Shown in pieces: positions 797-41,598 of a stretch of 64,000 nucleotides of DNA. Numbering within the stretch: position 1 is the first letter of the stretch; each line of letters opens with the position of its first letter. Below the pieces are notes generated by a model that saw only the letters and a list, made by a program, of their open reading frames with translations, was not told the DNA's origin and did not search any database. The position numbers were made by a program, and so were the translations under genes. This stretch comes from Rhodothermales bacterium (GTDB taxonomy: Bacteria > Bacteroidota > Rhodothermia > Rhodothermales > Bin80): NCBI GenBank assembly GCA_965203305.1, contig OZ241874.1, positions 1,968,976-2,032,975 on the forward strand. Reading direction: 5' to 3'.

Positions 797-2355
797 ACCT
801 GACGATTGACTTCTCCTGCGGGCGGAAACTCATTGAGTCCCTGTTGAAGAAATGGTTTGAGGTTCCAGATAGAGAGTAAACATTCCTGATCAACTACTAC
901 CGACTTCAGATTTCTTCCGCTTGGCTAGTCTCAATTCTGACATACCTCATTCAGAATGCACAACGAGTTTGTCAGCGTGTTACTACCTTGCCAGAAGAGG
1001 TGCTGAGGATAGAAATCGTGCAAGTTCATACAAACGCCTCTCATATGCAAATATCCTGAAAAGACACACCAAAACAATTCACTTGAGCAGTACATGCGTG
1101 CGGAACATCTCGAAAAAACTATTCCTAAGCAATGCCGGAAACGATCTCAACTCTGGTTATTGTCCCTGGAATTATCACTGTGACATAGAAGATTCACGCT
1201 CCTTTTCAACTTCGTCTCTGACACGCTTTCCGATTCCGAACAGATATCCCCAGATCGCCTTCACTTCGCTGTTCAAGTCAAACGATTGCTTCCCAAGTCA
1301 TCAACCGATGTCTTAAGGGCCTTGTGGTCTCCTTTCATCTCAATTCTGACATTCTCCACTGCCTCAGAAATCGTTATTATGACTGAGACATCCATGTATC
1401 TTGTGAGTGCTATGTGTTGAATGAGTCCTTATGAGTTCTTGAGTGTATAGTTCCCTGATGACGTAAAAAAGCGGAAGGCAGTACCATACTGGATCGAATT
1501 GACATTAAAACCAAGGTAGCATTTTGTCTCTTCAACATACCCGTCTGTAAATTTCTAACTCTCTGGGAACTGAATATGCTCTTTGTCGCCTCGCTTAGGA
1601 TGATAGCGCCATACTTGGAATATTCTGAATTTTGAGACGGACACGAGGTATTTCAATTTTCTTTGAGGCCTCAAAAAGCTGTTAGGGGAGTAAGTTCAGG
1701 ACTCAGGGATAATCTCAAAGCAATGGCATTAAGCACTTATCCTGCCTGCAATTTCGAATAGCTTGATCTTCTAAGGGATCAACTGCTCTCTGGGGCAGAG
1801 ATGCTGATTTGATGGTACTACCACCAGTACCAAATTTTCTGTCTGTCCAAATAGTCTGGAGTTAAGAACTCCCTTTAACTTGGCCATCAGATAGTGTTTC
1901 AGGGCATAGGCAGTTTGAGTATAACATCCAACCCTCTTTATCCGTTTCAGGCTACTACGAATAATGACATGTGAAAAAAAATCCTTGCTCATATAGCCAG
2001 AGAAGGCATTTCCTCGTGCTATAGCTTGGACATATACATGCCTTTCAGCTCTCCCAAATGCGGCATTGCATCCAAGAGGAAAATTTCAATTTCATCCAAA
2101 AAGATAGTGTATGTTCAGAAATTCACAGTAACCTCAAATACGGGGGATTAAAGCGGCACACTCTCCCTCATAGCGTTCATATATGGGGCGATTCAGGGCG
2201 TTCGTTCGCTATGAGAGATTCGGGGGAATCTTGCGCGAAGATTACATGTTTGCGGGCCTGTTGATTTCATATCCCAATTCGCCGAAAATCTTCCATCTTC
2301 GTCGGGAAACATATCTCCCCAAACCCCTCATACGCCCCTAAATCCCATATATTAG

Positions 2356-3653
2356 GGAATTATCCAGTAAAATCCGCAAGTCTGGAACCGGGAGAGAGTA
2401 TTATTTCTCCAGTCCCATGTCCGGGGACTGCTCTTTTGGAGGGAAATTCCTGATGATGTATTCCCGCAGGGACGGGATCGGGGCGGAGTATAACTTCGTT
2501 GTTTCTTCCATATGGAAGACTCCCCGGCGAACCGCCTGGAAAAAGAGTTCTGCGCCTTCCCCCGCTCCGTACTCCTTGTCCAGTTGGTCCACGGCCACCT
2601 CCTGTTCTATCCCGCCTTCCCCCGAACTTGCCAGCAGTATCCGTGCAAAACTCCTGCACTCTTTCGCCGTGAAGGGACTCAGACGGTGTTTATAGTATTC
2701 CATGCGATTTGCCCGTCCTTCTTCCATGACGGAGGCAAGTCCCATGTCTGTCATCTTGTTGCCATGTTTTTTCAGGTAGGAGACGGCGGGTTCCGTATAC
2801 GATATGATGTGTTGCGCCCATCCGTATGTTTCCTGGGTGATCGCATCAATCCACGCGGTGGGGTCTCCCTGTGCTTCCCCTTCCTTTGTGAGCCAGTCTT
2901 CCACCACCGCCCTTTCTTCTTCCCTTTTCAGGGGTTCCATGTTGAACCTGGACCCAAGCAGTGGGCGGGATATGCCCAGTGCTGCAAAGGATTCGAAGGT
3001 CATCCCCAGCCCGCCCGCCAGCAGGATGACGGATTTCCCGACCCCGCCATTGTGAATCTTTTTCAGAAGAGTGCGGACAGGCTTGCGGTGCTCTTCTGGC
3101 GGACCACCGTCTTCGCCCAGATGCTGGGCCTCGTCCAGAATCAGTAGGAGTGGTTCCCCCGCTTTTTTTATCAGCCCCAGAGGGGTAGCCCTGGATGTAT
3201 CAACCACGGATGTTTTTCTGCGTTTTGCTCCCCCCTTGACCAGGTTTAAATTCAGCGTCCCCCCTCCTTCCACGGTGTGCGACACGGTTCTTTTTTCTGG
3301 CGGGAGACCAAGCGTTTCCTGCAGTTTGTCTGCATCCCACAAATCATCCGGGTCAATCTCTGCGACATGCCATCCAGCTTCCGCCGCCTTCATCCAGCAT
3401 TCGGCCAGAAGTGCTGTTTTGCCGATCCCCGGCGGGCCTTGCACGAGGAACGTGCTTCCCCCACTGGTCTCCCCGGACTTGGCCAGCAAGTCTTCGAATC
3501 TTTTCAGGATTCGTTTCCGTCCGTGGAAGTAGTCGGTGGCTCCCCGATCATAAAGTCCTTGTATCCCGCTCATTTCCTGTCGTGGTTGGTCAAAAAAAGA
3601 CTACGCTTCGGGGCAGGGTCTGTTCCCGCACTTGCGGATTTTACTGGATAAGC
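2356..3653 (-). mobile_element. AAA+ ATPase cassette, copy 1 (IR-bounded, putative mobile unit)
   Basis: TTATCCAGTAAAATCCGCAAG at 2360-2380 and its exact reverse complement at 3631-3651 (21/21). Perfect 12-nt direct repeat CCCATATATTAG at 2344-2355 and 3654-3665. Confidence 0.55.
2401..3573 (-). CDS. ORC/Cdc6-like AAA+ ATPase with C-terminal helical (wHTH-like) region, cassette copy 1
   Basis: 390-aa ORF. Walker A FLVQGPPGIGKTALL, Walker B LLLILDEAQHLG, VILLAGGLG. Four paralogs in the window. Confidence 0.85.
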   Translation of the reverse strand: MSGIQGLYDRGATDYFHGRKRILKRFEDLLAKSGETSGGSTFLVQGPPGIGKTALLAECWMKAAEAGWHVAEIDPDDLWDADKLQETLGLPPEKRTVSHTVEGGGTLNLNLVKGGAKRRKTSVVDTSRATPLGLIKKAGEPLLLILDEAQHLGEDGGPPEEHRKPVRTLLKKIHNGGVGKSVILLAGGLGMTFESFAALGISRPLLGSRFNMEPLKREEERAVVEDWLTKEGEAQGDPTAWIDAITQETYGWAQHIISYTEPAVSYLKKHGNKMTDMGLASVMEEGRANRMEYYKHRLSPFTAKECRSFARILLASSGEGGIEQEVAVDQLDKEYGAGEGAELFFQAVRRGVFHMEETTKLYSAPIPSLREYIIRNFPPKEQSPDMGLEK

Positions 3654-3780
3654 CCCATATATTAGCGGTATTATGAATTTTTGGAGGGACACTAAATAGC
3701 CAATTTCTCTCCAGATCAAGCGGCTCAAGCTCAACAATCTTGTTCGAAATATCTACTTGAATCTCTCTCAAAACTCTTCG

Positions 3781-3879
3781 GAGCCTCCTGCAAAAATCCT
3801 TTTATACCGAACCAGTATGCCTGTAAACACTCCCGGGGAATTATTATTCTCAATATTCAGAATTTTGCAAGAGAGAAGG
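3781..3879 (+). repeat. ~100-bp repeat unit with inverted CTCYTGCAAAA ends
   Basis: About 85% identical by eye to the reverse complement of 5121-5220. Bounded by CTCCTGCAAAAAT and ATTTTGCAAGAGAG. Confidence 0.7.
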
Positions 3880-5120: not shown

Positions 5121-5220
5121 CCCCCGATCCTCTTGCAAAATTCTAGATATTGAGAATAATCAATCACTGGGAGTGTTCAAAGGCGTACCGGTTCGGTTAT
5201 AAAAGTGTTTTTGCAGGGGA
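5121..5220 (-). repeat. ~100-bp repeat unit, inverted partner of 3781-3879
   Basis: The reverse complement aligns with 3781-3879 (shared CTTTTATA.CCGAACC.GTA.GCCT.T.AACACTCCC...ATTATTCTCAATAT..AGAATTTTGCAAGAG). Confidence 0.7.
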
Positions 5221-10400: not shown

Positions 10401-10577
10401 GGCATCACACTGTCTGCCCCCAAAAATCACCTCCTGCTCTCTCTTCACTGAACCAATGCCTCTCTCATGCCGGTCAAGATCACTCTCATGTTTAACCTCC
10501 CATCCAAGGCGTTCCAGCCACTCCAGTAAAGTGGTTTCAAGTGTTGATTCGGTAGGAACTGCAATGCCATCCGTCAT
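7443..10577 (-). CDS. hsdR: Type I restriction enzyme R subunit
   Basis: 1044 aa. Helicase motifs [10 protein letters not shown] and [11 protein letters not shown]. Same strand and operon context as hsdS and hsdM. Confidence 0.9.
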
Positions 10578-10593
10578 TATTTACCAGTTTTCG

Positions 10594-12348: not shown

Positions 12349-14345
12349 TATTTCGGCTCTGTCGCGGATGTTACGGGCAAGGATTCCTGCAGTAAAGAGG
12401 GAGGATTTACTCCGGGATTCTGGAGAATATTTTCGACTTCAGTGAGTCGGATTTCTCCAGATATCAGCTTGGGAAGCAGAGTATTGCGTATCCGAGAGAG
12501 CATCTCGTTTGCCTTAGTATTTACTACAATGCATGCATAAAGTGGCCGTACCAGGCCGTAATAGGCAGTCAGAATTTTACTTGAAGGTACTGTAACTGGA
12601 ATGGGACAGAAGGATCTTTTGTTAATCTCCGCAAAGGTTGATCCACTGGATACAGCCTTGATGTATTCAATATTTTGATGGCACCAAAACAGAACAAAAA
12701 TATTGGGAAGTTGCTTGTTACAAACCATGGCAATGAACCCTTGATTCACTGCGGTTGGGTCTTCAGCAATGGCCAAGTAGCCAATAGGAGCGCGTGAGGA
12801 AAGAAGAACGGTACCGGCAGGCAAGAGCCCCGAACTTATCTTATTCAATCCGGCATCAGTAATCTTTCTGTCTGTGTCAAGCAACACCGGTGATGTCAAC
12901 TTGGACAAGTCCTTTGGGGTGGCCCAATTATGCGTACCACCATCCCAGTAGGAGTGGTCTTTCGTACTGGGAGTTCCACCACCGAAAACATCAACTTCAC
13001 TACCGATTTCGGATACCATCCACCCGGCAGGCTTGCCTTCGTCATCCAGCATATCTGGAAACAACTCCCATATTTCGGGAGGCAGGTAGGAATCGCGTCC
13101 TTCCATTTTTGCCCGCACCGGCCCGAAATCCACAAACCAGTCCTTGAAGATCGTCCGTGCGATTGCCTCCAGCGTCTGATTCATCTGCCGGTTCAGTTGG
13201 ATCTTGTCATCCAGCGTGCCCAGGATATGGGCAATGGCTCGCTGTTCTGGAAGAGGAGGAAGATCAATCTCCAGTTCACAGATATCGGTAGGGCGTATTG
13301 CCGGATATGCTGATGTGCTGTGTTCAGCGATGGTCTGGAGTCGTTCTACGATTTGATCTTGTGCCAGAAACCAGTAGAGAAAACCAGTGTCTGCGATATC
13401 TTCTCGCGCATGGAATACTGCGAAGCCAGTGGATGCGAGGACGTTTTCAGGGATGTCTCTCAGCAATCCAAAGTGTCTCTGATTCGGTCTCACAGTTGAG
13501 AATACAATATCACCAGTTTGTACTTTTCGGCGCGCACGGCTGGGGAGCTTGCCATTTCCGGTGTCAAAGCGTTGAAATGCCTCTATCCAGTTATCTGTGA
13601 TGCTGCCCGTATCAAGATAATTGACGAATGGCCATTCCTCGCACTGGGAATATGTCTCTTTGTTCATGACGATGCATTCATCCAGCCTGATTCGGGGCCA
13701 TATTCTATGTGGAATCATACCATTGCCCAGTCTAACATGGTCTGCTGGAATCTTCTGTCTGATTTCTCCGGATAAGTCGTCCCAAACAGATATGCATACG
13801 CGAAATAACAAATCGCTTTCTTCCAGTGATTTCCCCAACTCATCAACCTGTTGCTGTTGTTTGGGGGTGGAAAATACAGCAAGGTACAGATCTGATTTTG
13901 GAGTTGCCGAACCATTCACCCTGTCTCCATAAGCCCATACTTCTGTATCTGGCAGATGCTTCTGAAGCAATTTTTGAATGGTTCTGAACTCCTTTTCGGG
14001 AATGTCTATGATCGGGCTAACTGTGTCCTTGGGACTTTGTATAAGCACACCATGCGCACGCACAATGCCTCGGAAATCATCCTCCAGTCTTGCAAATTCT
14101 ACGATATCAACTCGGAAAGGAAGCTCTGACTCAACGAATTCCTCCTTCAAATTCCAGAGTGTACTTTGGGGCAGAGGCACTTCTCCCATAATGGCAATGT
14201 CAAGATCAGAATAGTCCCACGCAGTCCAGGTGGCACGGGAGCCAAAGGCAAGTACACTGCGATCTGGCACATGCCGCTGAAGAGTCTCACGAACAATGTC
14301 CCAGTGGTCAGGACGCAGATCAATGGAGGGAGGAGATGCACTCAT
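12348..14345 (-). CDS. hsdS: Type I R-M specificity subunit HsdS with two N-terminal MNT (minimal nucleotidyltransferase) domains
   Basis: 665 aa. aa ~30-100 LAFGSRATWTAWDYSDLDIAI...LPFRVDIV. aa ~120-215 VWAYGDRVNGSATPKSDLYLAVFS...LLFRVCISVWDDL, paralogous to ORF 17477-17797. Then HsdS TRD and conserved-region motifs (LPPLPEQRAIAHILGTLDDKI, LLPKLISGEIRL). Confidence 0.8.
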   Translation of the reverse strand: MSASPPSIDLRPDHWDIVRETLQRHVPDRSVLAFGSRATWTAWDYSDLDIAIMGEVPLPQSTLWNLKEEFVESELPFRVDIVEFARLEDDFRGIVRAHGVLIQSPKDTVSPIIDIPEKEFRTIQKLLQKHLPDTEVWAYGDRVNGSATPKSDLYLAVFSTPKQQQQVDELGKSLEESDLLFRVCISVWDDLSGEIRQKIPADHVRLGNGMIPHRIWPRIRLDECIVMNKETYSQCEEWPFVNYLDTGSITDNWIEAFQRFDTGNGKLPSRARRKVQTGDIVFSTVRPNQRHFGLLRDIPENVLASTGFAVFHAREDIADTGFLYWFLAQDQIVERLQTIAEHSTSAYPAIRPTDICELEIDLPPLPEQRAIAHILGTLDDKIQLNRQMNQTLEAIARTIFKDWFVDFGPVRAKMEGRDSYLPPEIWELFPDMLDDEGKPAGWMVSEIGSEVDVFGGGTPSTKDHSYWDGGTHNWATPKDLSKLTSPVLLDTDRKITDAGLNKISSGLLPAGTVLLSSRAPIGYLAIAEDPTAVNQGFIAMVCNKQLPNIFVLFWCHQNIEYIKAVSSGSTFAEINKRSFCPIPVTVPSSKILTAYYGLVRPLYACIVVNTKANEMLSRIRNTLLPKLISGEIRLTEVENILQNPGVNPPSLLQESLPVTSATEPK

Positions 14346-14362
14346 TGCAGAGAGTTATGCGC

Positions 14363-14803
14363 CTATTCATCCCTTGTCTCCAAAAAACGAACCAGATCAT
14401 GTGCATCATGAATGAACTTTTCTATGGATTCATACACATGTTCAGCTCTCTCGAAATCATAAATATGGGTGGTTCTATTCCGTCCTTCATTATACTGCAC
14501 CCAATTGTCTACATCATGGATAAGTCTATGCTCAGCTGCGATTCGAAAAAAATGCCGTCTAGTTACTCCTTTTACTATATCTGGAGATATATTCTCTTCA
14601 AGCCATCGCCTCATCATCTTCCAGCAGAGTTCATACGTTATTTCAAAGTGCTGGACAACACCAGCACGAATCGCAATACGCTCAAAATGACTCAACTGAA
14701 TCATGCGCTCATTATCCTCGCTCACAGCAAGAACTTCAACAAGCGCATCAAGAGACTTTTTTAAGTGATCAATCTGGAGAGGCATCGCTTTTTTTGACTT
14801 CAC
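14363..14803 (-). CDS. HEPN domain protein, HI0074 (nucleotidyltransferase substrate-binding) family
   Basis: 146 aa. Rx4H motif RNRTTH. Paralogous to 17026-17439 and 17785-18210. Confidence 0.75.
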   Translation of the reverse strand: MKSKKAMPLQIDHLKKSLDALVEVLAVSEDNERMIQLSHFERIAIRAGVVQHFEITYELCWKMMRRWLEENISPDIVKGVTRRHFFRIAAEHRLIHDVDNWVQYNEGRNRTTHIYDFERAEHVYESIEKFIHDAHDLVRFLETRDE

Positions 14804-14873
14804 TGATTGTGGTCACAGGGCACACTCCCCGCAATAAGGATATGTCTCTGAGCAGAAACATCATCACGAATTT

Positions 14874-16460
14874 CTACTTCCCCTCCTCCATTTGAAATCC
14901 CAATACACCCAAATTTTGCTTAATTGCGCTGTCAAGTCTGGCACTTTCAGTCTGCTGCCTGTGAAGTTCGGCTACCAGTCTCCCCATCTTGTCCGCAAAC
15001 GGTTCTGTATCTTCTTCCTCAGCTTCCATGCCAACATAGCGTCCCGGTGTCAGAATGTAACCATTCCTGCGAACCTCATCCAGCGTGGCACTTTTGCAAT
15101 AACCCGGGATGTCCTCATAGTCACCTGCCTCTGTTTCCGCCCGCCATGAATGATAGGTGCTAGCAATGCGGCTGATCTCCTCGTCACTGATTTCGCGACG
15201 CGTTCGGCTTACCATCTGACCAAATTTGCGTACATCAACAAATAGTATCTCATCCCGCTTGCGCTCACGGGAAAGGAACCACAGACAGGCAGGAATCTGG
15301 GTTGAGTAGAAAAGCTGCCCGGGAAGTGCTACCATGCAATCAAGCAAGCCATCTTCAATCAGATTCTTTCTGATTTCTGCCTCTGCCGACTGCCCTGATG
15401 ACATTGATCCGTTTGCCAGTACAAACCCTGCAATTCCTCCCGGAGCTAAATGGTGCAGGATGTGCTGAACCCAGGCATAATTGGCATTGCCCTTTGGTGG
15501 TATGCCATGAACCCATCGCTTGTCCTCTACCAGATGCTCCCCTCCCCAGTCGGAAACATTGAATGGTGGATTAGCAAGAATAAAATCTGCCTTTAAGTCT
15601 GGATGTTGATCATTGAGAAAAGTATCTCCATGTGCAACCTGTCCGTCAATGCCGCGAATCGCCAAATTCATTTTTGCCAGTCTCCAGGTTGTATGATTCG
15701 ACTCCTGACCCCAAACGGATATATTGCCTCTCGCCTTACCTCTATTGCCATTTCCCGTGGCATGCGACTGAATAAACTCGACCGATTGAACAAACATCCC
15801 GGATGAGCCGCAACATGGATCATACACCCGCCCATGATACGGTTCAATCATTTCAACCAGAAGCCTCACAATGCATCGGGGCGTATAAAACTCGCCTCCC
15901 CTCTTGCTCTCAGCACTTGCAAATTGAGAAAGGAAGTATTCATAAACGCGACCCAGTACATCTTTGGCTCGGGCTTCTTTTCCACCTACCCGGATGTCGC
16001 TAATCACATCTATGAGTTGTCCCAGTCTTACCTTATTGAGCGCAGGACGGGCATAGTTCTTCGGAAGAATATCCTTAAGGCTCTCATTCTCGCGTTCAAC
16101 TGCAATCATTGCCTCATCAATATGCTGGCCAATCGTAGGCTGACGTGCCTGCTCCATCAGATTCCCCCAGCGTGCTTCCTGAGGCACCCAGAAAATATTT
16201 TCTCTCCGATACTCGTCAGGATCCTCTGGATCGGCACCCTGGTTGCGCTCTCCCTCAAGCACATCATGTCGTTCTTCAAACGCATCCGAAATATATTTCA
16301 GGAAGAGAAGTCCGAGTACAACATGCTTGTATTCAGCCGCGTCCATTGAGCCACGCAGAGCGTCCGCCATCTCCCAGAGTTTGGCTTCATACTCTGCCAT
16401 CATATCTTTCTTCCCCATGGCTGAATCACCGTTGTTTTGCCCCTTGCTATTGCGTGACAT
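14874..16460 (-). CDS. hsdM: Type I R-M DNA methyltransferase M subunit
   Basis: 528 aa. N6-adenine MTase motif [11 protein letters not shown]-binding region [12 protein letters not shown]. Confidence 0.9.
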
Positions 16461-16696
16461 AAGCTGTTCTATACAAGTTTGTTATTTCTGCATATCCATT
16501 TTACTCCTTGCATGCTTCGCAGAACGTTTGCACTTCACGGCTATTATTCCAGATATGCATTTCGTCACGAAACTCTCTCTCGTCCCTGTTACGATCCCAC
16601 ATTAAAACAGTACTTCTTCCGTATTGGCATGTAGTATTCATCCGAAAATGTACAACACCCAGATGCAGTCAGATATCAATGATTCATGGCTGGATT

Positions 16697-17026
16697 TCAC
16701 TTATCTGCGAGGGAAACATCTCCCCTGTCCCGTCGATACCACTCAATACCATAGTTCAAAATGTGATCCTTGAGTTTCTGATTCCGTATTGACTTGTACA
16801 GAACCAGATCTACGGACTGCGCCATCGGGATACAGTCCAGTATAGCAGCAAGGCTTGCCTGATCCGTCAGTGTTAACTCCTCTCCAAACAGTGCAATGTC
16901 CACATCGGACACTACGGTGCTGGTTCCCATTGCTCTGGACCCAAATAAAACAGCTCGTTCCACTCGTTTATTTGCCGCGAACTGGGCAATGATTGCATCC
17001 CGATGTACATCCTTAATACCGCCCAT
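16697..17026 (-). CDS. MNT-type nucleotidyltransferase (antitoxin-like)
   Basis: 109 aa. LFGSRAMGTSTVVSDVDIALFG (GS...DxD). Start overlaps the upstream HEPN stop (TAATG). Confidence 0.75.
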   Translation of the reverse strand: MGGIKDVHRDAIIAQFAANKRVERAVLFGSRAMGTSTVVSDVDIALFGEELTLTDQASLAAILDCIPMAQSVDLVLYKSIRNQKLKDHILNYGIEWYRRDRGDVSLADK

Positions 17027-17439
17027 TATGAAATACGTCTGGCTTCAAGGGTTCGGTGGATTCGCAGGAGTACCGGGTGATAGTGCTTCTTGATCAGATC
17101 TTGGGCCTCTACTGCAACCTCACTCAGATAAATATGGCTTAATAAATTGCGCTTGTCCAAAGCATCAAGCAGTGTCTCGCAATCATCCTGGCTAAGATAA
17201 CCAACTTCAAAGCTCTTGCGGATGACCGCTCGGGGCACCCGTACATCATGTTCTTCACAGGAAAGCAGGTCCTTCAAAACGTTCCATGACAGTCCAAAAC
17301 AGAACTCAAATGTCTTGATTAACCCGGCAAGCTCAAGGTTATTGTACTGCTCTTGCTCACAAGCATCAGTCAGCTGTGCAAGTGCTTTTCCATAACTGTC
17401 CAGTCGCTGGTGCCAGCGTTGTTCGCCTGAATTGCCCAT
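17026..17439 (-). CDS. HEPN domain protein, HI0074 family
   Basis: 137 aa. Rx4H motif RNLLSH. Confidence 0.75.
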   Translation of the reverse strand: MGNSGEQRWHQRLDSYGKALAQLTDACEQEQYNNLELAGLIKTFEFCFGLSWNVLKDLLSCEEHDVRVPRAVIRKSFEVGYLSQDDCETLLDALDKRNLLSHIYLSEVAVEAQDLIKKHYHPVLLRIHRTLEARRIS

Positions 17440-17476
17440 CCCTCTAGTATTCCCGATTTTGCCTGAGAACAGACTC

Positions 17477-17797
17477 TTATGGCACTCTGTTCACCAGCGG
17501 GAAAGCTTCAGAAGCAATTTGTTCCTTGAACCTCTCTGGCAGATCGTCCCACACGAACAAATCCACACGGAATGGCAGATCACTTTCCTCAAATTCTTCC
17601 CGCAAATCTCCGATCTGTTGCTCTTCCTCGGGTGTTGAGAATACAACGAGATCCAGATCTGATTTTGGAGTAGAGGTTCCTTTCACTCTGGATCCATATA
17701 TCCAGACGGTTGTGTCAGGAATGTAACTGGCAAGTAACCTCTGAATGATCTTGAAATCCGCCTCCGTAATGTCCACAGCTGAGATTATCTCTTCCAT
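17477..17797 (-). CDS. MNT-type nucleotidyltransferase (antitoxin-like)
   Basis: 106 aa. VWIYGSRVKGTSTPKSDLDLVVFS. Overlaps the upstream HEPN gene by 13 nt. Confidence 0.75.
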   Translation of the reverse strand: MEEIISAVDITEADFKIIQRLLASYIPDTTVWIYGSRVKGTSTPKSDLDLVVFSTPEEEQQIGDLREEFEESDLPFRVDLFVWDDLPERFKEQIASEAFPLVNRVP

Positions 17798-18210
17798 ATT
17801 TCTCCGGTCATTTTCTGGTAGAGACGAATAGCATCATCAATGAAGTCTGGAATCAACTCTGTACAATCCTCGGCTTTCCCTTTATTGTAGTCATGTGATG
17901 TATCATTCCGTGCATTCGTGTATTTCAACCACCGGCTCAGAGGTTCTTCCAGCAAATCATTTTCAAAGGCCAATCTTAGTACAGGCTTTGGGCTGTTGGG
18001 AGGGGAAGAAACTCCAAGTTCCTCGGCTAGATATCGCCGCAGAACCTTCCATAAGCAATCGTAGCAGGTCTCAAACCGCTTGATCACTGATTCAGTGACC
18101 GCCTGCCCCATAAGTTCAAATTCAAGCATGACTGGCATGGGATTTTGGCAATTTTCATTTTGCTCCTCCAGTCGTTCAAGCGATAGTCGGAATTTCGTAT
18201 AGTCCATCAT
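17785..18210 (-). CDS. HEPN domain protein, HI0074 family
   Basis: 141 aa. Rx4H motif RNDTSH. Confidence 0.75.
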   Translation of the reverse strand: MMDYTKFRLSLERLEEQNENCQNPMPVMLEFELMGQAVTESVIKRFETCYDCLWKVLRRYLAEELGVSSPPNSPKPVLRLAFENDLLEEPLSRWLKYTNARNDTSHDYNKGKAEDCTELIPDFIDDAIRLYQKMTGEIWKR

Positions 18211-18554
18211 ATCCTTGCAACCTACATCTCGTAAAAATCAAACAAAAGAGCCTCTGGCAAAATTCCCGGTTGAGGAAGAGACATTAACCTGAGAATGCTT
18301 GCAGGCACATTAGGTCGGTTGGCGTGCAGAGATATTCCTATAAGAACCCCTCAAAATCATCTTACGCACAAGACCAAAGATGTTCATATCATCCACATCT
18401 TCTGTGCCAGTCCAGTGATTTCTGGATTTACGGAAGACACAAATTAAAAAAATCTGGGCGCATTTCAACGCGGCCCGCTATATGCGATTAGGCTGGTGTG
18501 TATCCAGAATCATTCCACTCTGAGAATCAATCATCTGCAAGAACCAAAGGTTTT

Positions 18555-18653
18555 GAGGCTCCTGCGAAAACATACTCTGGACCCGATCTAATGTGTCCGA
18601 AAGCACTCTCGGAGCGATATTTCTCCGTCATCTGGGAATTTTGCAAGAGGCTC
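18555..18653 (-). repeat. ~100-bp unit of the GAGCCTCTTGCAAAA-bounded repeat family
   Basis: Reverse strand reads GAGCCTCTTGCAAAATTCCCAGATGACGGAGAAATATCGCTCC...TTTTCGCAGGAGCCTC. The first ~45 nt match the units at 727 and 35200. Confidence 0.55.
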
Positions 18654-18905
18654 GTTTTGCCAAAATGACAAATCGAAACCGTCAAAGTCAGGAACAAAAT
18701 GTAATCCCTCTACTCGTTATTCAGAAGTGTGCACAAGAATACAAGCCCCAAAGGCTCGGCCTTGCTCAGGATCGCCGCCCTACGAAGAAGGCAGGAGCTA
18801 GGCTTACTGCTAAGGGGCAGATGTACTGTTCTATAATTTCCGAAACAAGAGGTTCCCGCCTTAATATTTTTCTGCCAAAAACACGGATATGTTGGCTTTT
18901 TACAT

Positions 18906-19043
18906 TTAAGATGTAATAACCCTGAATTCAATCCGAGCCAGTATCACCAGCAACGGCCCCCGTGTGGTCTGGACTGCTTCCTTCTGCTTTTCGTTCAGAC
19001 CATCAAGGATTTTCGCTGTATCGAATTTCTGCATCCCACTCAT
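18906..19043 (-). pseudogene. UvrD/PcrA/Rep-family helicase, N-terminal ~35-codon stub
   Basis: From the ATG at 19043: MSGMQKFDTAKILDGLNEKQKEAVQTTRGPLLVILA, the conserved N-terminus preceding Walker A in UvrD-like helicases. Similarity ends before GAGSGKT. Confidence 0.6.
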
Positions 19044-19052
19044 TTTCTTGAT

Positions 19053-20371
19053 GGAATTATCCCGTAAAATCCGCACAGGATGCAGGGAGAGAGTATTATC
19101 TCTCCAGTCCCATGTCTGTGTCCCGATCACTGTCCATACGATCTTGCCTGCGGCGTGCTTCCACCTCACGGATATGCGCAGCGCGTTCCGTCAAGTACTT
19201 GTGCAGGGACGGGATGGGGATCGTGTAGAAGCCATTTTTACGGTAGAGAACGCCTTGACTGACCACTTGTGCAAACACGGCTTCGCCCAATTTCTCCAAA
19301 AGCTCTTTTTTGGGGACATGTTCCTGCGCATTACGAAATATCTTCACCAAGCGGAGGATGTCATCGTTGTCGACCCCATACAGTCGGCCTTGATAGTATT
19401 CCATGCGTTCTTCCCGCCCTTTCTCCATGACGAGACGCAGCAACTCCGGGGTCATCACCCCATCGTTCGCGTAGACCAAGTGGGCGGCATTCCGTGCATA
19501 GGAATCTACATGCCTGGGCCACAAATACGTCTCTTGGGTGATCGCATTGATCCAGTCTGTGGTGTCCCCTTTTGCTTTCCCTGCCCTTTTGAGCCAGTTC
19601 TTGATCACCTGCCGTTCCTCCTCCTCTTCCAGTGGTTTCATATCAAAATGGCATTGAGCTGCCATCCTGGATATCCCCAGTGCTTTGAATGCGGCATGGG
19701 TCATCCCCAGTCCACCCGCCAGCAGGATCACGGGCTTCCCCAACTCTCCATTGTGAATCTCCGTCAGAAGATCGCTGACCTCGTCTTTGTACGGTCCATT
19801 GATATTTTTGCTTTCTCCCATACGCTGGGCCTCGTCCAGAATCAAGAGGAGCGGGTCCTTTATTTTCTGGATCAGGCTCTTGGGGGTGACCTTCGGAGTG
19901 GCTTTTTTTGTCGTCCGTGATAGCCCCCCTTCGAGGGATGCCCCAAAGTATTTCACTTTCCCGCCACCCCCGATGGTTTTTTCTGTGGCGACCTCTTTTT
20001 TCTTCAGCCCCAGGCATTCCGCCATCAAGTCCGGATCCCACAGGGCCGTGACAACAAGTTTTCGGACCTCCCACTTCTCTCTCTTTGCCTTCTTCCTGCA
20101 TTCGTCCAGCAGGGCCGTTTTGCCGATCCCCGGCGGCCCTTGCACAAGGAAGATGGTCCCTTCGTTATTTTCTTTGTCATCCACCAGCCTGTTCTCAAAG
20201 CTGTCCAGTATGGGGGTGCGCCCGTGGAAGTAGGGGGTGGCTCCACGGTCTGTGGATTTTCGAAGCGGATCCATGGTTCCTGTCGTGGTTGGTCAAAAAA
20301 GACTACCCTTCGGAGCAGGGTTTGTTCCCCTATTGCACCCCTTGCGGATTTTACGGGATAACTCCCAATAA
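19053..20371 (-). mobile_element. AAA+ ATPase cassette, copy 2
   Basis: TTATCCCGTAAAATCCGCA at 19057-19075 and CTTGCGGATTTTACGGGATAA at 20341-20361 (19-nt perfect IR). GATGG occurs on both sides (19050-19054, 20372-20376). Confidence 0.55.
19096..20274 (-). CDS. ORC/Cdc6-like AAA+ ATPase, cassette copy 2
   Basis: 392 aa. FLVQGPPGIGKTALL, LLLILDEAQRMG, VILLAGGLG, IPIPSL. C-terminus DTDMGLER. Confidence 0.85.
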   Translation of the reverse strand: MDPLRKSTDRGATPYFHGRTPILDSFENRLVDDKENNEGTIFLVQGPPGIGKTALLDECRKKAKREKWEVRKLVVTALWDPDLMAECLGLKKKEVATEKTIGGGGKVKYFGASLEGGLSRTTKKATPKVTPKSLIQKIKDPLLLILDEAQRMGESKNINGPYKDEVSDLLTEIHNGELGKPVILLAGGLGMTHAAFKALGISRMAAQCHFDMKPLEEEEERQVIKNWLKRAGKAKGDTTDWINAITQETYLWPRHVDSYARNAAHLVYANDGVMTPELLRLVMEKGREERMEYYQGRLYGVDNDDILRLVKIFRNAQEHVPKKELLEKLGEAVFAQVVSQGVLYRKNGFYTIPIPSLHKYLTERAAHIREVEARRRQDRMDSDRDTDMGLER

Positions 20372-20622
20372 GATGGTGGAGAGATACCATCAATGAAAAG
20401 ATATATCTGGCATGCAAAAATAGAGATTATTATTGGTTTTCCAGCTCCATCCACAGAATATGTCCATGCAGATCTTGCCTCGTATGCTTTTCCACCAAGT
20501 TCGCCAAACTTATCTAGCCATGTGGTCGTGACTTCTTCCCATGCAGGGGATTTGCATCCAGCAAAATAAACAGTGAGCGTTGCAGTGATCAGGATCAGTG
20601 CTTTTGAATAGACTCTATTCAT
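20293..20622 (-). CDS. Small lipoprotein whose 3' end now reads into cassette copy 2
   Basis: Start at 20622: MNRVYSKALILITATLTVYFAGC (lipobox). The last ~27 codons are encoded by the cassette end, including the IR (20341-20361) and leader. Confidence 0.45.
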   Translation of the reverse strand: MNRVYSKALILITATLTVYFAGCKSPAWEEVTTTWLDKFGELGGKAYEARSAWTYSVDGAGKPIIISIFACQIYLFIDGISPPSYWELSRKIRKGCNRGTNPAPKGSLF

Positions 20623-20638
20623 TTCAGGAGAGGAAGGA

Positions 20639-20939
20639 TGCCTATTCCAATCAATTGGGCCGGTGAATCCAATTTTATTGGGCCACCCGTTCGGCATGTT
20701 TGGGATAGTGTTCATGACTCGGCAGATTGGGGCTGTAATTCTTGTTCTCCTTTGATCTTTCGCATGGACTCTCCGGTTAACGGAATGCGGTGTGCATTGT
20801 TGACGAGGCGATCCAGAATGGCATCCGCCAATGTGGGATTTTCCATGGTTTCATGCCACTTGTTGACCGGATACTGACTGGTGACAATGGTAGAGCACCA
20901 TACCCCTGAGAAAAAAACCTCCATCAATGAGAATCGCAA
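20639..20939 (-). mobile_element. IS21-family right-end remnant (istB 3' fragment plus terminus)
   Basis: Translation ...[53 protein letters not shown] resembles the IstB C-terminus. The ~75 nt after the stop, ending TG at 20639, recur inverted at 37845-37922. Confidence 0.65.
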
Positions 20940-21375
20940 CCCTAGTCATTCAGAAAAATTTTGCACGCTAAAAGCCTCAAATGTTTAGATCACTCGGAAT
21001 TTCCCATGGGCACTAGTAAGAGCCTCTTGCAAAAGTAGCATTTTAGAACGTTCAACCCATTTCTGAGGCCCAGGCTTCCTTGATTCTTGCCAAGTCCGGT
21101 TTGCGTCGGATTCTTTGTGCAGAACCGAGAGGTCTTCTTCGCCTGTCAAGAGGAGATGTTGGATACAATCCAAAACGTGAGTTTTCCATGACATAGTTCA
21201 ACAATCGGACACAACTTCCAGAGAGAGTATATAATCCTCTGCATCCGTGTATGTCAAATGGCATGGGATCATATTCTTGCAAGATTTGATGATAATCCGC
21301 CACCCCAAAACGCTCAATTGTTGTGTTGTAACATGGTAATCCCCTTACTCCATATACCTCCCGATATTAGTATCA

Positions 21376-24118: not shown

Positions 24119-24585
24119 GTGAGATCCAATCTACGCAGGATTGTCCACAGCTAATAAGCCCCGGTAATCCTTTGGGAATTCACATTGACCATAGAACGGG
24201 CAGCGGAGAATGCCTTCTGCAAACAGAGCCTCTTGCAGAAATACTTTGGTAAAGGACCATGCATACTTGCAAGCACTTTCAGGGGACCGAATCTCCGCCA
24301 ACTTGATATTTTTGCAGAAACCTCTACTGCTCATTACTGAAGTTACCCCCTGGTATATAAGCCCCTCAGGTGAGCGAACAGGAATTCCCTGCCCTGCATA
24401 TCCGAGAATATCGTCTGGCATTGATGAATCTGTTTTTCGGTTAGTTTTCGACAGTCAAACACAGGAATCTGTGATAACATGGACAGAACAACATCAGACC
24501 TCCCCATTTGCTGTCGGCTGCCAATATCCCAAAACAGGATAATCTTCAATGTTGAATCAGACCAGAGAATGCGAACAATGAGAGA

Positions 24586-25918
24586 TTACCTCTCCATTCC
24601 CATATCTGTGTTTTGCCCCTTGTCCGGGTCGTCTTTGCTCTGTGAGATTCCTGTTCTGGTTTGATTTTTCCCTCCTCTTTTTCGGGAAATGGGCTGTCTG
24701 CTTTATGATTCTCTGGTTCCTTTGGGGGAGACTCTTTTCCTGTTTCTTCCCCAGAAACCTGTTTCAAATGGGACTGTTCCCGGGCTGTGAGCTCCTTCTC
24801 CGCCAGCCATTCCCGTATCATGTAGTCGTGGAGAGAGGGGATCGGAATGATGTATCTCCGCCCCTTCTTGTGCAGAACGCCCTTTGACAGGGCCCGATCA
24901 AATCCACCTTCCCCAATCGCCCGCTTGATCTCCTCATCTGTCAGTCCAATCTCCAGCGAAACATGCTGAAACAATTCCGCCAGTCCATTGAATTCATTAT
25001 ACGTCAAGTCTTCCGTCCGGCCACGGTAGTATTCCCTGCGGTTTACCCGCCCCTGCTCCATGACGATACGCAACCCCTCCGCGGTCATCTCCCCCTCGGA
25101 TTTCTTTAAGTACTCCAGGGCAGGGTCCAGGTAGGACGCGATGTGGTGCCCCCACCCGTGTGTCTCTGCTGTGATGGCATTCATCCAAGCAGTGATGTCC
25201 CCCTTCGCCTTCCCCTCCTCTGTGAGCCAGTCCTTGATCACCCCTCGTTCCTCCGCTCTGGAGAGTGCCTCAAGATTGAAATAGCAGTTGCTCTTGAACC
25301 GGGATATGCCCAGCACTCCCTCAAATACAGACCGGGTATTCCCTAGTCCACCAACCAGTAATACCAAAGGCCTGTCCATCTTCCCATTGTAGATATAGTC
25401 TAGAAGGGAGGTTGCCAATTCTTGTTTTCCCGCAGGGATGAGGGTCGGACTTCCAAATCGCTGTGCCTCATCAAGAATCAGCAGGAGCGGGGCATCTTTG
25501 CTCTGAAGAGCCTTGATAGGGGTGGATGCATCTCTGTCCAGATCAAGCGATATCCCTAGAGAGGCAATATCTATTTCGACCTCTGCGGAGATTCTTTTTA
25601 ATCGACGTTTGGCTTTCCCCAGACATTCCCACAGAATATCTGTGTCCCAGAGTGCCCCTGGTCTGATCTCTGCGGTGCCCCAGCCTTTCTCCTCCGCCCA
25701 TTTTCTGCACTCCGCCAGGAATGCGGTTTTGCCCACACCTGGGGGCCCTAGACCAGGAAACAGGAACCCTTCTTTCCAGGGCTGGACCGGAATAATAACC
25801 GCAGAAAGTACTTCTTCTCGTTTTCCCGCCCGTGGAAGTATCTTGTCTCCCCGCGGTCGTCAATAATTTCTCCTTCTGGAAGTGGCTTGTCCTGATCGGG
25901 AAGTTTTGTGCGGAACAT
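24586..25918 (-). pseudogene. ORC/Cdc6-like AAA+ ATPase, cassette copy 3, decayed
   Basis: From the ATG at 25918: MFRTKLPDQDKPLPEGEIIDDRGETRYFHGRE...GSCFLV, then in-frame TAG (25748-25750) where paralogs have Q of FLVQGPPG. The frame then shifts at the following C-run; the ORF-track frame 24546-25736 continues GPPGVGKTAFL. A second frameshift near 24640-24650: the conserved end TDMGMER-TAA (stop 24586-24588) is in another frame. Confidence 0.75.
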
Positions 25919-26094
25919 AGCGGAGACAGGAGATGGCTGGCAGAACTTTTATGCTTGGACACTCAGACACTGCTTCAGGTTCCCCCGGTTTTTGGGGCCA
26001 GGTTTGTGCAGGGCCGGGTTGGATGTCTACCCAACTGCTGAACCCAGAGAAGGGAAACGGAGCAGAAACACGCAGGGAGTCTGCCCGTTCCCAG

Positions 26095-26120
26095 CTTGCG
26101 GATTTTGCTGGATAACTCCC
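26095..26120. repeat. Right (upstream) IR arm of cassette copy 3; the left arm is missing
   Basis: CTTGCGGATTTTGCTGGATAACTCCC. No matching TTATCCAGC arm lies 3' of the copy-3 stop. Confidence 0.7.
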
Positions 26121-37922: not shown

Positions 37923-38237
37923 CTTCCGAAACCATCCCGATTCAGGGAGTATCTGACTTGTGTCTGGCAGCATCTCGGGGTTACAGACTGAGAAGTCAGG
38001 AGTAAGGCTGGAACACTGTAAACCGCAAGGATGGGGGCCATTTCCACTCACCGTAAAGATTTGGAAATTATCCAGCAAAATCCGCATGAAGGCAGGGAGA
38101 GAGTGTTATCTCTCTATCCCCGTATCTGCGTCCCGATCACTGTCGGAAGGGTCTCTGCCCTGTGGAGGTTCCTGACCAGGATTGCCTTTTCCCTCCCCTT
38201 TTTCTGGGGAGGGACTGTCTGGAGTATGGTTTTCCGG

Positions 38238-39440
38238 CTACTCCTCGGGATCCGCCTCGGGTAACTGTCTCGGCTCCCCCTGATCCTTGGACTCCGGATG
38301 TTGCTCCGAAATCTCTTTCGGGGGAAAATTCCTTACAATGAAATTTCGCAAAGACGGGATCGGAACGGAATAACATCGTAGTTTCTTATTAAGGTAAAAG
38401 ACTCCCTTGCGTACCGCCCGCCAGAAGATTTCTTCCCCTTTCCCCATCCCATACTCTCTGTCCAGCTGTTCTATAACATCTTCCTGCTCTACAATGCCCT
38501 CCTTAGAACTTGCTGCCAGGATTCTGGCAAGGCTTCGGCACTCTTTTGCAGTGAAGTCACTCAAACGACCTTCATAGTATTCTCTGCGGTTTTTCCTCCC
38601 CTGTTCCAGGACAGACAGAAGCTCTCCCCTGGTCATCTCCCCATCGTTTTCCTTGAGATGGGCCGCAGCTGGGACCGTGTATGCGATAATGTGCTGGGGC
38701 CACCGGTAGGTCTCTTTGGCAATCGCATCCACCCAATCCGTCGTGTCTCCCTTCGCCTTCCCCTCTTCTTTGAGCCACTCTCTGATCACCGTCCACTCTT
38801 CCTCTTCTTCCAGTGGATCCAGGTTCGTGATGGATCCTAAGGAGGCACGATAGATTCCCAGACTGTTCAATGCCCTGTCTGTCGTGCCCAATCCGCCAGC
38901 TAACAGGATGACAGGCTTCCCCAGCCCGCTGTTATGAATCCGCTTCAGGAGATCTCGGACATCGTCTTTGTATCCTCCGGTTATCCTGCTGTCTTCGCCC
39001 AAATGCTGGGCCTCGTCAAGAATAAGCAGAAGGGGGGTGTCACCTATCTTGAGTATGTCTTGTGGGGTGCGGGGGTGGTGATCAACCGTGATTTTTGCTT
39101 TGCCCTTCGCAACCAGAAATTTCGTTATCCCTGCTTCACCTTCCCCGCCTGTAACCCTGATTTCGGGGCCGATCTCAAGTGTTTTCCGCAACTTGTCTGG
39201 ATCCCACAGATCTCTCGGGTCAATCTCTGCCACTTCCCACTCCTGCTCCTCTGCTATATCCCAGCATTTTGCCAGCAGAGCGGTTTTCCCCACGCCAGGA
39301 GGCCCCTGTACCAAAAATATAGTTCCGCCTTTGGATTCGCTGAACTCCTCAAGTGCCTCCCGGAACTTCGAGAGGATCGTTTCGCGTCCGCGAAAGTGTT
39401 TAGCTGCTCCTCTGTCTCGAAAGCCTTTAATCTTGCTCAT
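38238..39440 (-). CDS. ORC/Cdc6-like AAA+ ATPase, cassette copy 4 (C-terminal tail cut by in-frame TAG)
   Basis: 400 aa. FLVQGPPGVGKTALL, LLLILDEAQHLG. After TAG (38238-38240), 43 more in-frame codons reach the family-typical ...DADTGIER-TAA at 38106-38108. Confidence 0.8.
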   Translation of the reverse strand: MSKIKGFRDRGAAKHFRGRETILSKFREALEEFSESKGGTIFLVQGPPGVGKTALLAKCWDIAEEQEWEVAEIDPRDLWDPDKLRKTLEIGPEIRVTGGEGEAGITKFLVAKGKAKITVDHHPRTPQDILKIGDTPLLLILDEAQHLGEDSRITGGYKDDVRDLLKRIHNSGLGKPVILLAGGLGTTDRALNSLGIYRASLGSITNLDPLEEEEEWTVIREWLKEEGKAKGDTTDWVDAIAKETYRWPQHIIAYTVPAAAHLKENDGEMTRGELLSVLEQGRKNRREYYEGRLSDFTAKECRSLARILAASSKEGIVEQEDVIEQLDREYGMGKGEEIFWRAVRKGVFYLNKKLRCYSVPIPSLRNFIVRNFPPKEISEQHPESKDQGEPRQLPEADPEE

Positions 39441-39607
39441 CGTTTCTTCTGGAAGTGGTTTGTCCTAGTCGGGAAGTTTTGTACAGAACATGGTGAGGAC
39501 AGGATAGCGTTGGCAGAACCTTTGGGCTTGGACACCCAGACACTGCTTCAGGTTCCCTCTATTAGGAAATTATCCAGCAAAATCTGCATGAAGGCAGGGA
39601 GAGAGTA

Positions 39608-40939
39608 TTATCTCTCTATCCCCGTGTCTGCGTCCAGATCACTGTCGGAAGGTTCTCTGCCCTGTGGAGATTCCTGACCAGGATTGCCTTTCCCCTCCCC
39701 TTTTTCAGGGGAGGGACTGTCTGGAGTATGGTTTTCCGGCTCCTTCTCGGGATCCGCCTCGGGTAACTGTCTCGGCTCCCCCTGATCCTTGGACTCCGGT
39801 TGTTGCTCCTGAATCTCTTTCGGAAGATAATTTTCTAACAGCCAGTCCCGCATGGACGGGATCGGGACAGAGTAGTTCCCTTCCTCATCGTAGTAAAACA
39901 CCCCCTTCTTCACGGACAGAAAAAATAGCTCCTTTGCTTTCTCCTCCCCATACTCTCTTGTGAGATGCGCAAGAATCTCTGTCTTTGTTAGCCTCCCGTC
40001 TTTGGGAACACCTCCTATGATCTGAGCAAAACTGGTTCTTTCTTCAGAAACAAATTCCGACATCCGCCCTACATAGTATTCTCTGCGGTGTTTACGCCCC
40101 TGTTCCAAGACAGACAGCAACCCCTCCTCTGTCATCTCCCCGCCGTCTTCTCTGAGATGGGCTGCGGCTGGCACCGTGTATGCGATAATGTGCTGGGGCC
40201 ACCTGTAAGTCTCTCTGGCAATCGCATCCACCCAATCCGTCGTGTCTCCCTTCGCCTCCCCCTCTTCTCTGAGCCACTCTCTGATCACCGTCCGCTCCTC
40301 CTCTTCTTCCAGTGGATCCAAGTTCGTGATGGATCCGAAGGAAGAGCGAGAGACCCCCAGACTGTTCAATGCTCTGTCTGTCGTGCCCAATCCACCAGCT
40401 AACAGGATGACAGGCTTCCCCAGCCCGCTGTTATGAATCCGCTTCAGGAGATCTCGGACATCGTCTTTGTACCCTCCCGTTATCCTGCTGTCTTCGCCCA
40501 AATGCTGGGCCTCGTCAAGAATCAACAGAAGGGGGGTGTCGCCTATCTTGAGTATGTCTTGTGGGGTGCGGGGGTGGTGATCAACCGTGATTTTTGCCTT
40601 GCCCTTCGCAACCAAAAATTTCGTTATCCCTGCTTCCCCTTCCCCGCCTGTAACCCTGATTTCGGGGCCGATCTCAAGTGTTTTCCGCAACTTGTCTGGA
40701 TCCCACAGATCTCTCGGGTCAATCTCTGCCACTTCCCACTCCTGCTCCTCTGCTATATCCCAGCATTTTGCCAGCAGAGCGGTTTTCCCCACGCCAGGAG
40801 GCCCCTGTACCAAAAATATAGTTCCGCCTTTGGATTCGCTGAACTCCCCAAGTGCCTCCCGGAACTTCGAGAGGATCGCTTCGCGTCCGCGAAAGTGTTT
40901 CGCCGCTCCTCTGTCTCGAAAGCCTTTAATCTTGCTCAT
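39608..40939 (-). CDS. ORC/Cdc6-like AAA+ ATPase, cassette copy 5
   Basis: Start taken at MSKIKGFRDRG (40939) by analogy with copy 4. First ~205 aa are ~99% identical to copy 4. Long acidic/Pro-rich tail ending DADTGIER. Confidence 0.8.
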   Translation of the reverse strand: MSKIKGFRDRGAAKHFRGREAILSKFREALGEFSESKGGTIFLVQGPPGVGKTALLAKCWDIAEEQEWEVAEIDPRDLWDPDKLRKTLEIGPEIRVTGGEGEAGITKFLVAKGKAKITVDHHPRTPQDILKIGDTPLLLILDEAQHLGEDSRITGGYKDDVRDLLKRIHNSGLGKPVILLAGGLGTTDRALNSLGVSRSSFGSITNLDPLEEEEERTVIREWLREEGEAKGDTTDWVDAIARETYRWPQHIIAYTVPAAAHLREDGGEMTEEGLLSVLEQGRKHRREYYVGRMSEFVSEERTSFAQIIGGVPKDGRLTKTEILAHLTREYGEEKAKELFFLSVKKGVFYYDEEGNYSVPIPSMRDWLLENYLPKEIQEQQPESKDQGEPRQLPEADPEKEPENHTPDSPSPEKGEGKGNPGQESPQGREPSDSDLDADTGIER

Positions 40940-41598
40940 CGTTTCTTCCAGAAGTGGTTTGTCCTGGTCGGGAAGTTTGTACGGAACATGGTGAGGACAG
41001 AAGAGCACTGGCAGAAATCTTAGGGTTGGACACCCAGACACTGCTTCAGGTTCCCCCTATCAGGAAATTATCCAGCAAAATCCGCATGAAGGCAGGGAGG
41101 GAGTGTTATCCCTCATTGTTCGCCTTCCTTGTCCTAATTCAACATTGCGGATTATCCTGTCCCCTCTCCTGATGTATATGAATCCTCTGCGAAAGGAATT
41201 GGACCGGAGACTGTTACGCGAAGTGTTTGATTCATGGGAGGATTGCAGAAATTGCGCGGAGGTATGGTACAAGGAACCGCTTGTACATGCGGGAAAAGAA
41301 GGTTGGGATAAAGGACTTCTATCCTAATCTGAACGTTTCATGTCAGGGGTTGGAAGATACCTGTTCCGGGCTTGCGAATTTTGCTGGATAAGTCCCAAAG
41401 ATTTCTGGCAACTGACTGACTCCTTGACTCAGTTCTCGGAACAGTCTGATCCATTTTCCTCTGCAATTTGCGGGGAGATCGTCCTTCTCTGCTCCTGTTA
41501 CTGACTCTCTGTGTAACATGCGCATCATTGACGCATGTTTTCGGAGTGACGGGGAAAGGGCATGGATCACATGCTGATCCATGAAAGCTGCTCCCCAG

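Follow-up and report, generated by a model that had tools for sequence, protein, structure and literature searches.

Can the original state of an insertion site be recovered by cutting out the mobile unit that now occupies it? This question is raised by a cassette of about 1.3 kb, here termed copy 2 (c2), in a 64,000-nucleotide (nt) stretch of the genome of a Rhodothermales bacterium (GenBank assembly GCA_965203305.1, contig OZ241874.1), which was analyzed at its full length and is referred to as the window. The original prediction described c2 as an insertion between two genes and proposed that its removal gives back a clean junction, in which the stop codon of a lipoprotein gene overlaps the start codon of a gene for a UvrD/PcrA-like helicase. 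As arithmetic, this reconstruction is sound. GATGG is present at 19050-19054 and at 20372-20376, and removal of 19055-20376 (1322 nt) leaves ...GGT ATC TCT CCA CCA TCA AGA AAA TGA on the minus strand. The open reading frame (ORF) starting at 20622 then ends in ...DGISPPSRK-stop, with its TGA within the ATGA of the ORF starting at 19043; in the unedited sequence, it crosses the inverted repeat (IR) into the cassette and ends at 20293. As history, the reconstruction is doubtful because both the insertion rule of the cassette family (8 bp, abutting the termini) and the comparison with a sister genome argue against it. Judged from the sequences compared here, the ATGA junction is most likely a reading-frame coincidence and not an ancestral empty site. 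Our overall reading, which we consider probable though well short of certain, is that c2 is a member of a family of transposase-less mobile cassettes of ~1.3 kb, that its target duplication has been lost and that the ATGA junction is coincidental. The argument draws on the following features of c2.

19052..20366, minus strand: cassette copy 2, from IR to IR, 1315 nt, with homology to L001 and L158.
19052..19077: IR located 3' of the gene, TGGAATTATCCCGTAAAATCCGCACA, with an outermost T in place of the consensus G.
20341..20366: IR on the 5' side of the gene, reading CTTGCGGATTTTACGGGATAACTCCC on the plus strand.
19096..20274, minus strand: ATPase gene, intact, 392 amino acids (aa), AAA+, with Walker A GPPGIGKT, Walker B LILDEAQ and a C-terminal winged helix.
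19086..19105, minus strand: conserved hairpin GGAGAGA-N6-TCTCTCC, which holds the stop codon and codes for the conserved C-terminus ..GLER-stop (repeat family D8).
19044..19051: 8-mer abutting the left terminus, TTTCTTGA.
20367..20374: 8-mer abutting the right terminus, AATAAGAT.

The termini at 19052 and 20366 were set by homology with other copies of the cassette, and homology to the sister-genome copies L001 (86%) and L158 ends at 19053/20366. The sister genome (European Nucleotide Archive contig ctg6977_145x_c) and the window are 99% identical in PabB, for which the next best matches (~70%) come from Rhodothermales metagenome-assembled genomes (MAGs).

Copy 2 does not stand alone. The window holds five full or partial units of ~1.3 kb (c1, c2, c3, c4 and c5), as well as a gene-less mini unit. 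Each unit comprises one minus-strand gene, coding for a protein of 390-400 aa, between terminal inverted repeats. The units other than c2 are located as follows.

2355..3656, minus strand: copy 1 (c1), with the 8-bp duplication ATATATTA at 2347-2354 and 3657-3664, in the right end of an ISL3-type miniature element.
24534..26120, minus strand: copy 3 (c3), situated between nadA and pabB, old and also present in the sister genome, with a degenerate left repeat and, in the window, a frameshifted gene.
38063..41396, minus strand: composite of c4, c5 and the mini unit, with one 8-bp duplication AAAGATTT at 38055-38062 and 41397-41404.

The termini of the window copies were aligned with those of the sister loci L001, L082, L083, L157, L158, L159 and L162, of L160 from another sample and of the c3 ortholog in L080. 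They share a 26-nt terminal inverted repeat with the consensus GGGAaTTATCCAGCAAAATCCGCAAG (24 termini). In six independent copies (two in the window, four in the sister genome), an 8-bp direct repeat that is perfect or matches at 7/8 positions abuts the GGGA...TCCC termini. The flanking 8-mers are given per insertion.

c1: ATATATTA, 8/8.
c4-c5 composite: AAAGATTT, 8/8.
L001: ATTTGAAA, 8/8.
L159 (L160 is the same insertion): CAATAATT, 8/8.
L158, a two-gene composite: ATATATTG, 8/8.
L083: AAAGCAAA / AAAGTAAA, 7/8.
L162: ATCTAATG / ACCTAATG, 7/8.

Independent events are counted as six because L158 and c1 possibly represent one event. Both occupy the same site (target ATATATTA/G) within the right-hand end of a miniature element of the ISL3 type (window 2104-3700; L158 3654-7310), which lacks a transposase and whose ends match those of the full ISL3 element at L001 11262-12882 (IR TAGTGTCTGTCCGAAAATTCA). 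They may reflect one ancestral insertion that was spread by the outer element, or a preferred target. The direct repeats of c1 and of the c4-c5 array are far above chance. That of the array (AAAGATTT) had been given correctly as 8 nt at 38055-38062 and 41397-41404. For c1, a 12-nt repeat had been described, and CCCATATATTAG indeed occurs at 2344-2355 and 3654-3665, but the true length of the duplication is 8 nt; the surplus bases, G and CCC, belong to the inverted-repeat termini. The direct repeats were formerly believed to vary in length (5, 8 and 9-12 nt). Tabulating them across the loci aligned from the window and the fetched loci, as had been proposed as a check, yields a consistent 8 bp at the six independent sites.

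An empty site can be reconstructed convincingly elsewhere in the family. In L159 (5712-8493), an AlbA_2/HATPase_c_4 gene has been divided in two by a unit, leaving fragments of 90 aa (AlbA_2) and 411 aa (AlbA_2/HATPase_c_4). Removal of the unit together with one 8-mer yields a single ORF of 490 aa, which serves as a positive control for the empty site of the family. A second sample (L160, ERZ26693861) carries this insertion as well. In addition, the sister genome holds a cassette 95.6% identical to c1 in other surroundings (L083), and the best match of c2 (86%, L001) is likewise located elsewhere in that genome. Because near-identical cassettes occupy different contexts, and given the duplications and the restored L159 gene, the units are transposable and their duplication is a uniform 8 bp. 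The units thus insert at AT-rich 8-mers and duplicate them, as expected of a staggered 8-bp cut.

Held against this rule, c2 stands out. Its flanking 8-mers, TTTCTTGA and AATAAGAT, agree at only 1/8 positions, meaning that there is no target duplication. The proposal that the cassettes are insertions with target duplication hence stands for the family (six independent 8-bp sites and the restored ORF of L159) but not for c2 itself. The GATGG repeat is out of register: its left copy includes two bases of the left IR, while its right copy begins 5 nt past the right terminus. Nor does the pair exceed chance: a direct repeat of at least 5 nt between two random 14-nt windows of the same composition arises in ~8% of trials, and the prior for an in-frame TGA at the reconstructed junction is ~1 in 3. 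Deletions that follow the family rule produce no ATGA junction. When just the unit is cut out (1315 nt), the ORF is fused in frame to the helicase stub, and when either 8-mer is removed with it (1323 nt), the frame stays open until an unrelated stop; the junction arises only with the 1322-nt boundaries of the original prediction. More generally, an empty-site reconstruction from a short, off-register repeat can yield a tidy gene junction by chance.

The surroundings of c2 tell the same story. A blastn comparison of L080 with the window delimits a strain-specific block, within which the flanking features lie.

18946..21221: strain-specific block, 2276 bp, comprising the helicase stub, c2, the orphan ORF, an IS21 remnant and another insertion sequence (IS) end.
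18946..19043, minus strand: PcrA/UvrD-like N-terminal stub, 33 codons, cut exactly at the strain breakpoint; similar to PcrA residues 4-30 (E 0.003).
20367..20622, minus strand: orphan ORF with a lipoprotein-like signal (..TVYFAGC), which as it stands continues into the cassette to 20293.
20639..20940, minus strand: IS21-family remnant (inverted repeat I1, alignment A1), which from our own reading of its motifs we take to be the C-terminus of IstB and the element end.

On both sides of the block, the sister genome aligns to the window at 95-97%, but 18946-21221 is replaced there by 529 unrelated bases. As the whole block is absent, the sister genome offers no empty allele, and the search for an uninterrupted ATGA junction in related genomes thus came out negative. 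A junction-adjacent probe, GATGGTATCTCTCCACCATC, gave no match in the metagenome collection either. In a more distant relative (L081, PabB 73%), no cassette is present at the c2 or c3 position. The strain breakpoint, determined from the L080 alignment, is at 18945/18946, with sister-genome homology starting at 18945. The ORF starting at 19043, which had been read as a UvrD/PcrA-like helicase, does resemble PcrA at its N-terminus (MSGMQKFDTAKILDGLNEKQKEAVQTTRGPLLV), but the resemblance is confined to the 33-codon stub. The ORF departs from PcrA before Walker A (GxGKT) and stops at codon 87, and it lacks the full superfamily 1 helicase core (an LNxxQxxAV..GPxLV segment followed by Walker A). On the other side, a search for homologs of the orphan "lipoprotein" ORF among 5.8 billion proteins, those of the sister genome included, returned only its own annotated form (P0121). 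Neither the stub nor the orphan ORF has a second copy in any fetched locus. The IS21 remnant has an inverted paralogous copy at 37754-37922 (84% identical to 20639-20940), such that one remnant adjoins c2 and the other the c4-c5 array.

How could c2 have come to lie between such neighbors? An element that keeps both ends and is flanked by unrelated 8-mers is a classical product of recombination between copies or of an adjacent deletion. Accordingly, c2 would be a family member that lost its target duplication and whose flanks are now unrelated 8-mers, either by recombination between two cassettes at different sites or by an adjacent deletion that ended at an element terminus. Both routes are plausible because the paralogs are mosaic and the neighborhood is a patchwork of IS fragments. 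If recombination was responsible, the reciprocal product would be a copy whose 3'-side end adjoins AATAAGAT or whose 5'-side end adjoins TTTCAAGA/TCAAGAAA. Were the duplication lost by such a rearrangement, the two sequences now flanking c2, the helicase stub (left) and the orphan ORF (right), had probably never adjoined each other, which would make the ATGA junction coincidental.

The cargo of the cassettes deserves separate attention. For Pfam AAA_16 (cutoff 32.6 bits), c1 (41.5), c4 (40.9) and c5 (39.2) score above the threshold and c2 (31.9) just below it. c4 and c5 additionally match AAA_22 weakly (28.5-28.9 bits against a cutoff of 27), and a weak match to a PHROG annotated as 'DNA transposition protein' was obtained. 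No transposase, integrase or nuclease family was detected in the cassettes with Pfam, NCBIfam, PADLOC and PHROGs, only P-loop/AAA+ matches, and profile searches against PDB sequences, PADLOC and PHROGs returned nothing specific. The AlphaFold model of the c2 protein (predicted local distance difference test score 86) predicts an AAA+ core with a helical lid, plus a winged helix at the C-terminus. Among PDB structures, Foldseek ranks archaeal ORC2/Cdc6, RuvB, 2qen and 2fna (both archaeal ATPases) and NB-ARC modules as the best fold matches, with E ~1e-8 for ORC2, Cdc6, 2qen and 2fna. No record of the exact c2 protein was found on look-up. The hairpin at the end of the gene (19086..19105) folds with a z of -1.5 to -1.9; a terminator-like hairpin considered in the 5' leader was dismissed, as its fold is not better than that of shuffled sequence (z -0.3 and +0.5).

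The family has expanded considerably in two Rhodothermales-like genomes, of which the cassettes make up ~1%. After clustering at 90% identity, ~19 clusters originate from the genome of the window (3.83 Mb) and ~30 from the sister genome (3.67 Mb). Paralogs are reciprocal mosaics of one another (e.g., P0011 and P0014 versus c1 and c2). In a neighbor-joining tree, the repeat-bearing copies form a single clade, whose only outside member, L163, lacks canonical repeats. A scan of one genome per species, in which the genome of the window is not included, retrieved only relatives of 35-41% identity from Rhodothermales MAGs, which lack flanking inverted repeats and often occur in tandem arrays. L041, L048, L059 and other Rhodothermales loci, for instance, carry same-strand arrays of three or four ATPase paralogs without flanking inverted repeats. 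L013 appeared to be a repeat-flanked relative, but its repeat is a terminator palindrome that recurs after each gene of a tandem array. No relatives of the ATPase were found in viral contigs or in plasmids. A probe for the IR gave 73 single matches in the metagenome collection, which we attribute to chance because none has an extended repeat or a partner, and a single chance match in the viral collection.

With no transposase inside the units, mobilization in trans suggests itself: a transposase encoded elsewhere in the genome would recognize the repeats and move the units. The only transposases seen here to make 8-bp duplications are of the ISL3 type, and these are encoded elsewhere, not in the cassette. 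The sister genome carries two ISL3 insertions that are missing from the window (L157 12007-13294 and 15876-17164, ends GGTAYTAGTGCAATTC), with clean 8-bp duplications (one of them TATCGGTT); since they are strain-specific and their duplications are clean, ISL3 is currently active in this lineage. The cassette IR was also compared with the ends of both ISL3 types, of a DDE_Tnp_1 IS, of IS21 and of other IS fragments, but none of these is similar to it beyond shuffled controls.

Several observations weigh against our reading of c2 as a rearranged, trans-mobilized passenger unit. Neither the 64-kb window nor ~150 kb of sister-genome sequence yielded an autonomous element with matching IRs, and the rearrangement of c2 is deduced solely from its missing duplication. 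The cargo is always one gene family, and the copies with repeats are one clade. Moreover, the cassette proteins have diverged to ~43% identity while their repeats are still ~80% identical. Constant cargo and deep divergence between conserved ends are unlike a random passenger, and so leave room for the ATPase as part of the element machinery. The Orc/Cdc6-like AAA+/winged-helix protein might then bind its own repeats and recruit or direct a transposase from elsewhere, or act by an undescribed mechanism. Every repeat pair seen here encloses either this ATPase family or nothing, the repeat-bearing copies are monophyletic, and conserved repeats surround deeply diverged proteins; the winged helix of the predicted fold would suit DNA binding, and the weak AAA_22 and 'DNA transposition protein' matches point the same way. 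On the other hand, the protein has no nuclease, DDE, HUH or recombinase domain, its likeness to transposition ATPases is that of the general AAA+ fold only, its Rhodothermales homologs of 35-41% identity sit in ordinary tandem arrays without flanking repeats, and L163, of the same clade, is devoid of canonical repeats. We therefore regard a working role of the ATPase as unlikely, and somewhat less likely still a self-sustaining element, in which the Orc/Cdc6-like protein would recognize its own repeats and borrow a DNA-cutting enzyme or use unrecognized chemistry. If true, this would explain why the same gene stays linked to conserved ends across dozens of diverged mosaic copies.

Two further accounts fare worse. 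In the original prediction, c2 would be a simple insertion, with GATGG as a 5-nt duplication, into the ATGA overlap of the lipoprotein and UvrD/PcrA genes; the uninterrupted sequence would read ...CCACCATCAAGAAAATGAGTGGG... and a full-length helicase would lie downstream. The orientation of both flanking ORFs on the minus strand and the correct arithmetic (the 1322-nt deletion does yield ..SPPSRK-stop with the TGA inside ATGA) speak for it. Nonetheless, the GATGG pair is out of register where the other copies have 8-bp duplications abutting their termini, chance alone gives a 5-nt repeat in ~8% of trials and a frame match in ~1 of 3, the helicase is a mere 33-codon stub, the lipoprotein ORF has no homolog, the whole block is missing from the sister genome and the junction probe found no match, which together render this account improbable. 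It is more improbable still, to the point of being hard to credit, that the units are immobile, with IRs that are regulatory or serve as sites for site-specific recombination (e.g., gene inversion) and with a family that grew by ordinary duplication. Tandem arrays in the window (38-41 kb) and in L158, as well as tandem paralogs in related genomes, are compatible with such growth, and IRs flanking a whole gene could allow its inversion. Yet, at six sites the termini are immediately flanked by 8-bp direct repeats whose sequences are unrelated, precise deletion restores the split gene of L159, and near-identical cassettes occupy different contexts in two strains.

The remaining copies and neighboring sequences add further detail on the locus. 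The c3 gene (24546-25962) is a pseudogene in the window due to a 1-nt deletion around codon ~57 and a 5-nt deletion near its 3' end; its ortholog is intact (455 aa, L080 8206-9573). The c4-c5 array comprises three 3'-side repeats and one 5'-side repeat, and L158 displays the opposite pattern. Two tandem ATPase genes (c4 and c5) are present at 38063-41060 in the window versus one at L157 9760-11710, where extra IS insertions occur; the strains differ here either through tandem duplication of recent date or through loss by recombination. The gene-less mini unit (41063-41396, 334 bp), with cassette repeats at its ends, is found in both strains (also L157 7566-9876), and in the sister genome it is broken by a DDE_Tnp_1 IS with an 11-bp duplication. 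To the right of c1, overlapping ORFs contain four tandem 42-nt repeats and a 74-nt direct repeat (3982-4233, 4324-4467). A 19-nt motif (GAGCCTCTTGCAAAA..) occurs at least eight times in the window (at 726, 3780, 5125, 18247, 18636, 21019, 24225 and 35199), including inverted pairs (18247-18265 with 18636-18654; 3792-3873 with 5130-5211), and resembles the termini of a further miniature-element family. A defense-type neighborhood (7443-18210) encodes a type I restriction-modification system (a 1044-aa HsdR-like ORF; HsdM at 14874-16460) and, after it, two gene pairs (16697-18210), each of a nucleotidyltransferase gene and a substrate-binding (HEPN-like) gene. Both parts are conserved in the sister genome (L080).

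A family that recombines into mosaics, splits genes and nests in other elements may be of interest for the study of both mobile DNA and symbiont genomes. Literature searches retrieved no description of such an element, but several known systems resemble it in part. AAA+ transposition helpers (IS21 IstB, Tn7 TnsC, Tn5053 TniB and Mu MuB) are also ATPases within IR-bounded elements; theirs, however, always stand beside a DDE transposase in the same element, whereas the cassettes have none. The Orc1/Cdc6-like and 'archaeal ATPase' AAA+ families (PDB 1w5s/1w5t, 2qen and 2fna; Pfam AAA_16 and ATPase_2) share the arrangement of AAA+ core, lid and winged helix and also tend toward large paralog sets, but identity is as low as 11-15%, the cassettes lack an origin-like context and carriage by repeat-bounded mobile units is not described for the known families. 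The ISL3 family and its miniatures correspond in the 8-bp duplication and in size (~1.3 kb), and c1 even lies inside an ISL3-type miniature element. Nevertheless, the cassettes are without a DDE_Tnp_ISL3 gene, and their repeats are not significantly similar to the ends of either ISL3 type. Integron gene cassettes, which carry a single 3' attC, cause no duplication and form arrays beside an integrase gene, were rejected in view of the repeats on both sides, the 8-bp duplications and the scattering of copies over unrelated contexts.

The closest counterpart is the mobile insertion cassette, defined by two inverted repeats, the absence of a transposase and a target duplication (PMC3913671). The type example, MIC231 of Bacillus cereus, is moved in trans by the transposase of IS231A (PMC3913671). 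Like MIC231 and the qnrD and qnrS2 mic elements, the present units have paired IRs, no internal transposase and a target duplication. Specifically, they carry two 26-nt terminal IRs around a single ORF, lack a transposase, which supports their fit to the definition, and show an 8-bp duplication for the family, though not for c2. They differ in that no autonomous IS with matching ends was identified in the window or in ~150 kb of sister-genome sequence, in their composite forms with extra internal repeats, and in a cargo that always belongs to one ATPase family, in dozens of copies per genome, at ~43% identity and mosaic. The cassette family thus fits a variant of the known mobile insertion cassettes, unusual in its constant Orc/Cdc6-like cargo in dozens of diverged copies.

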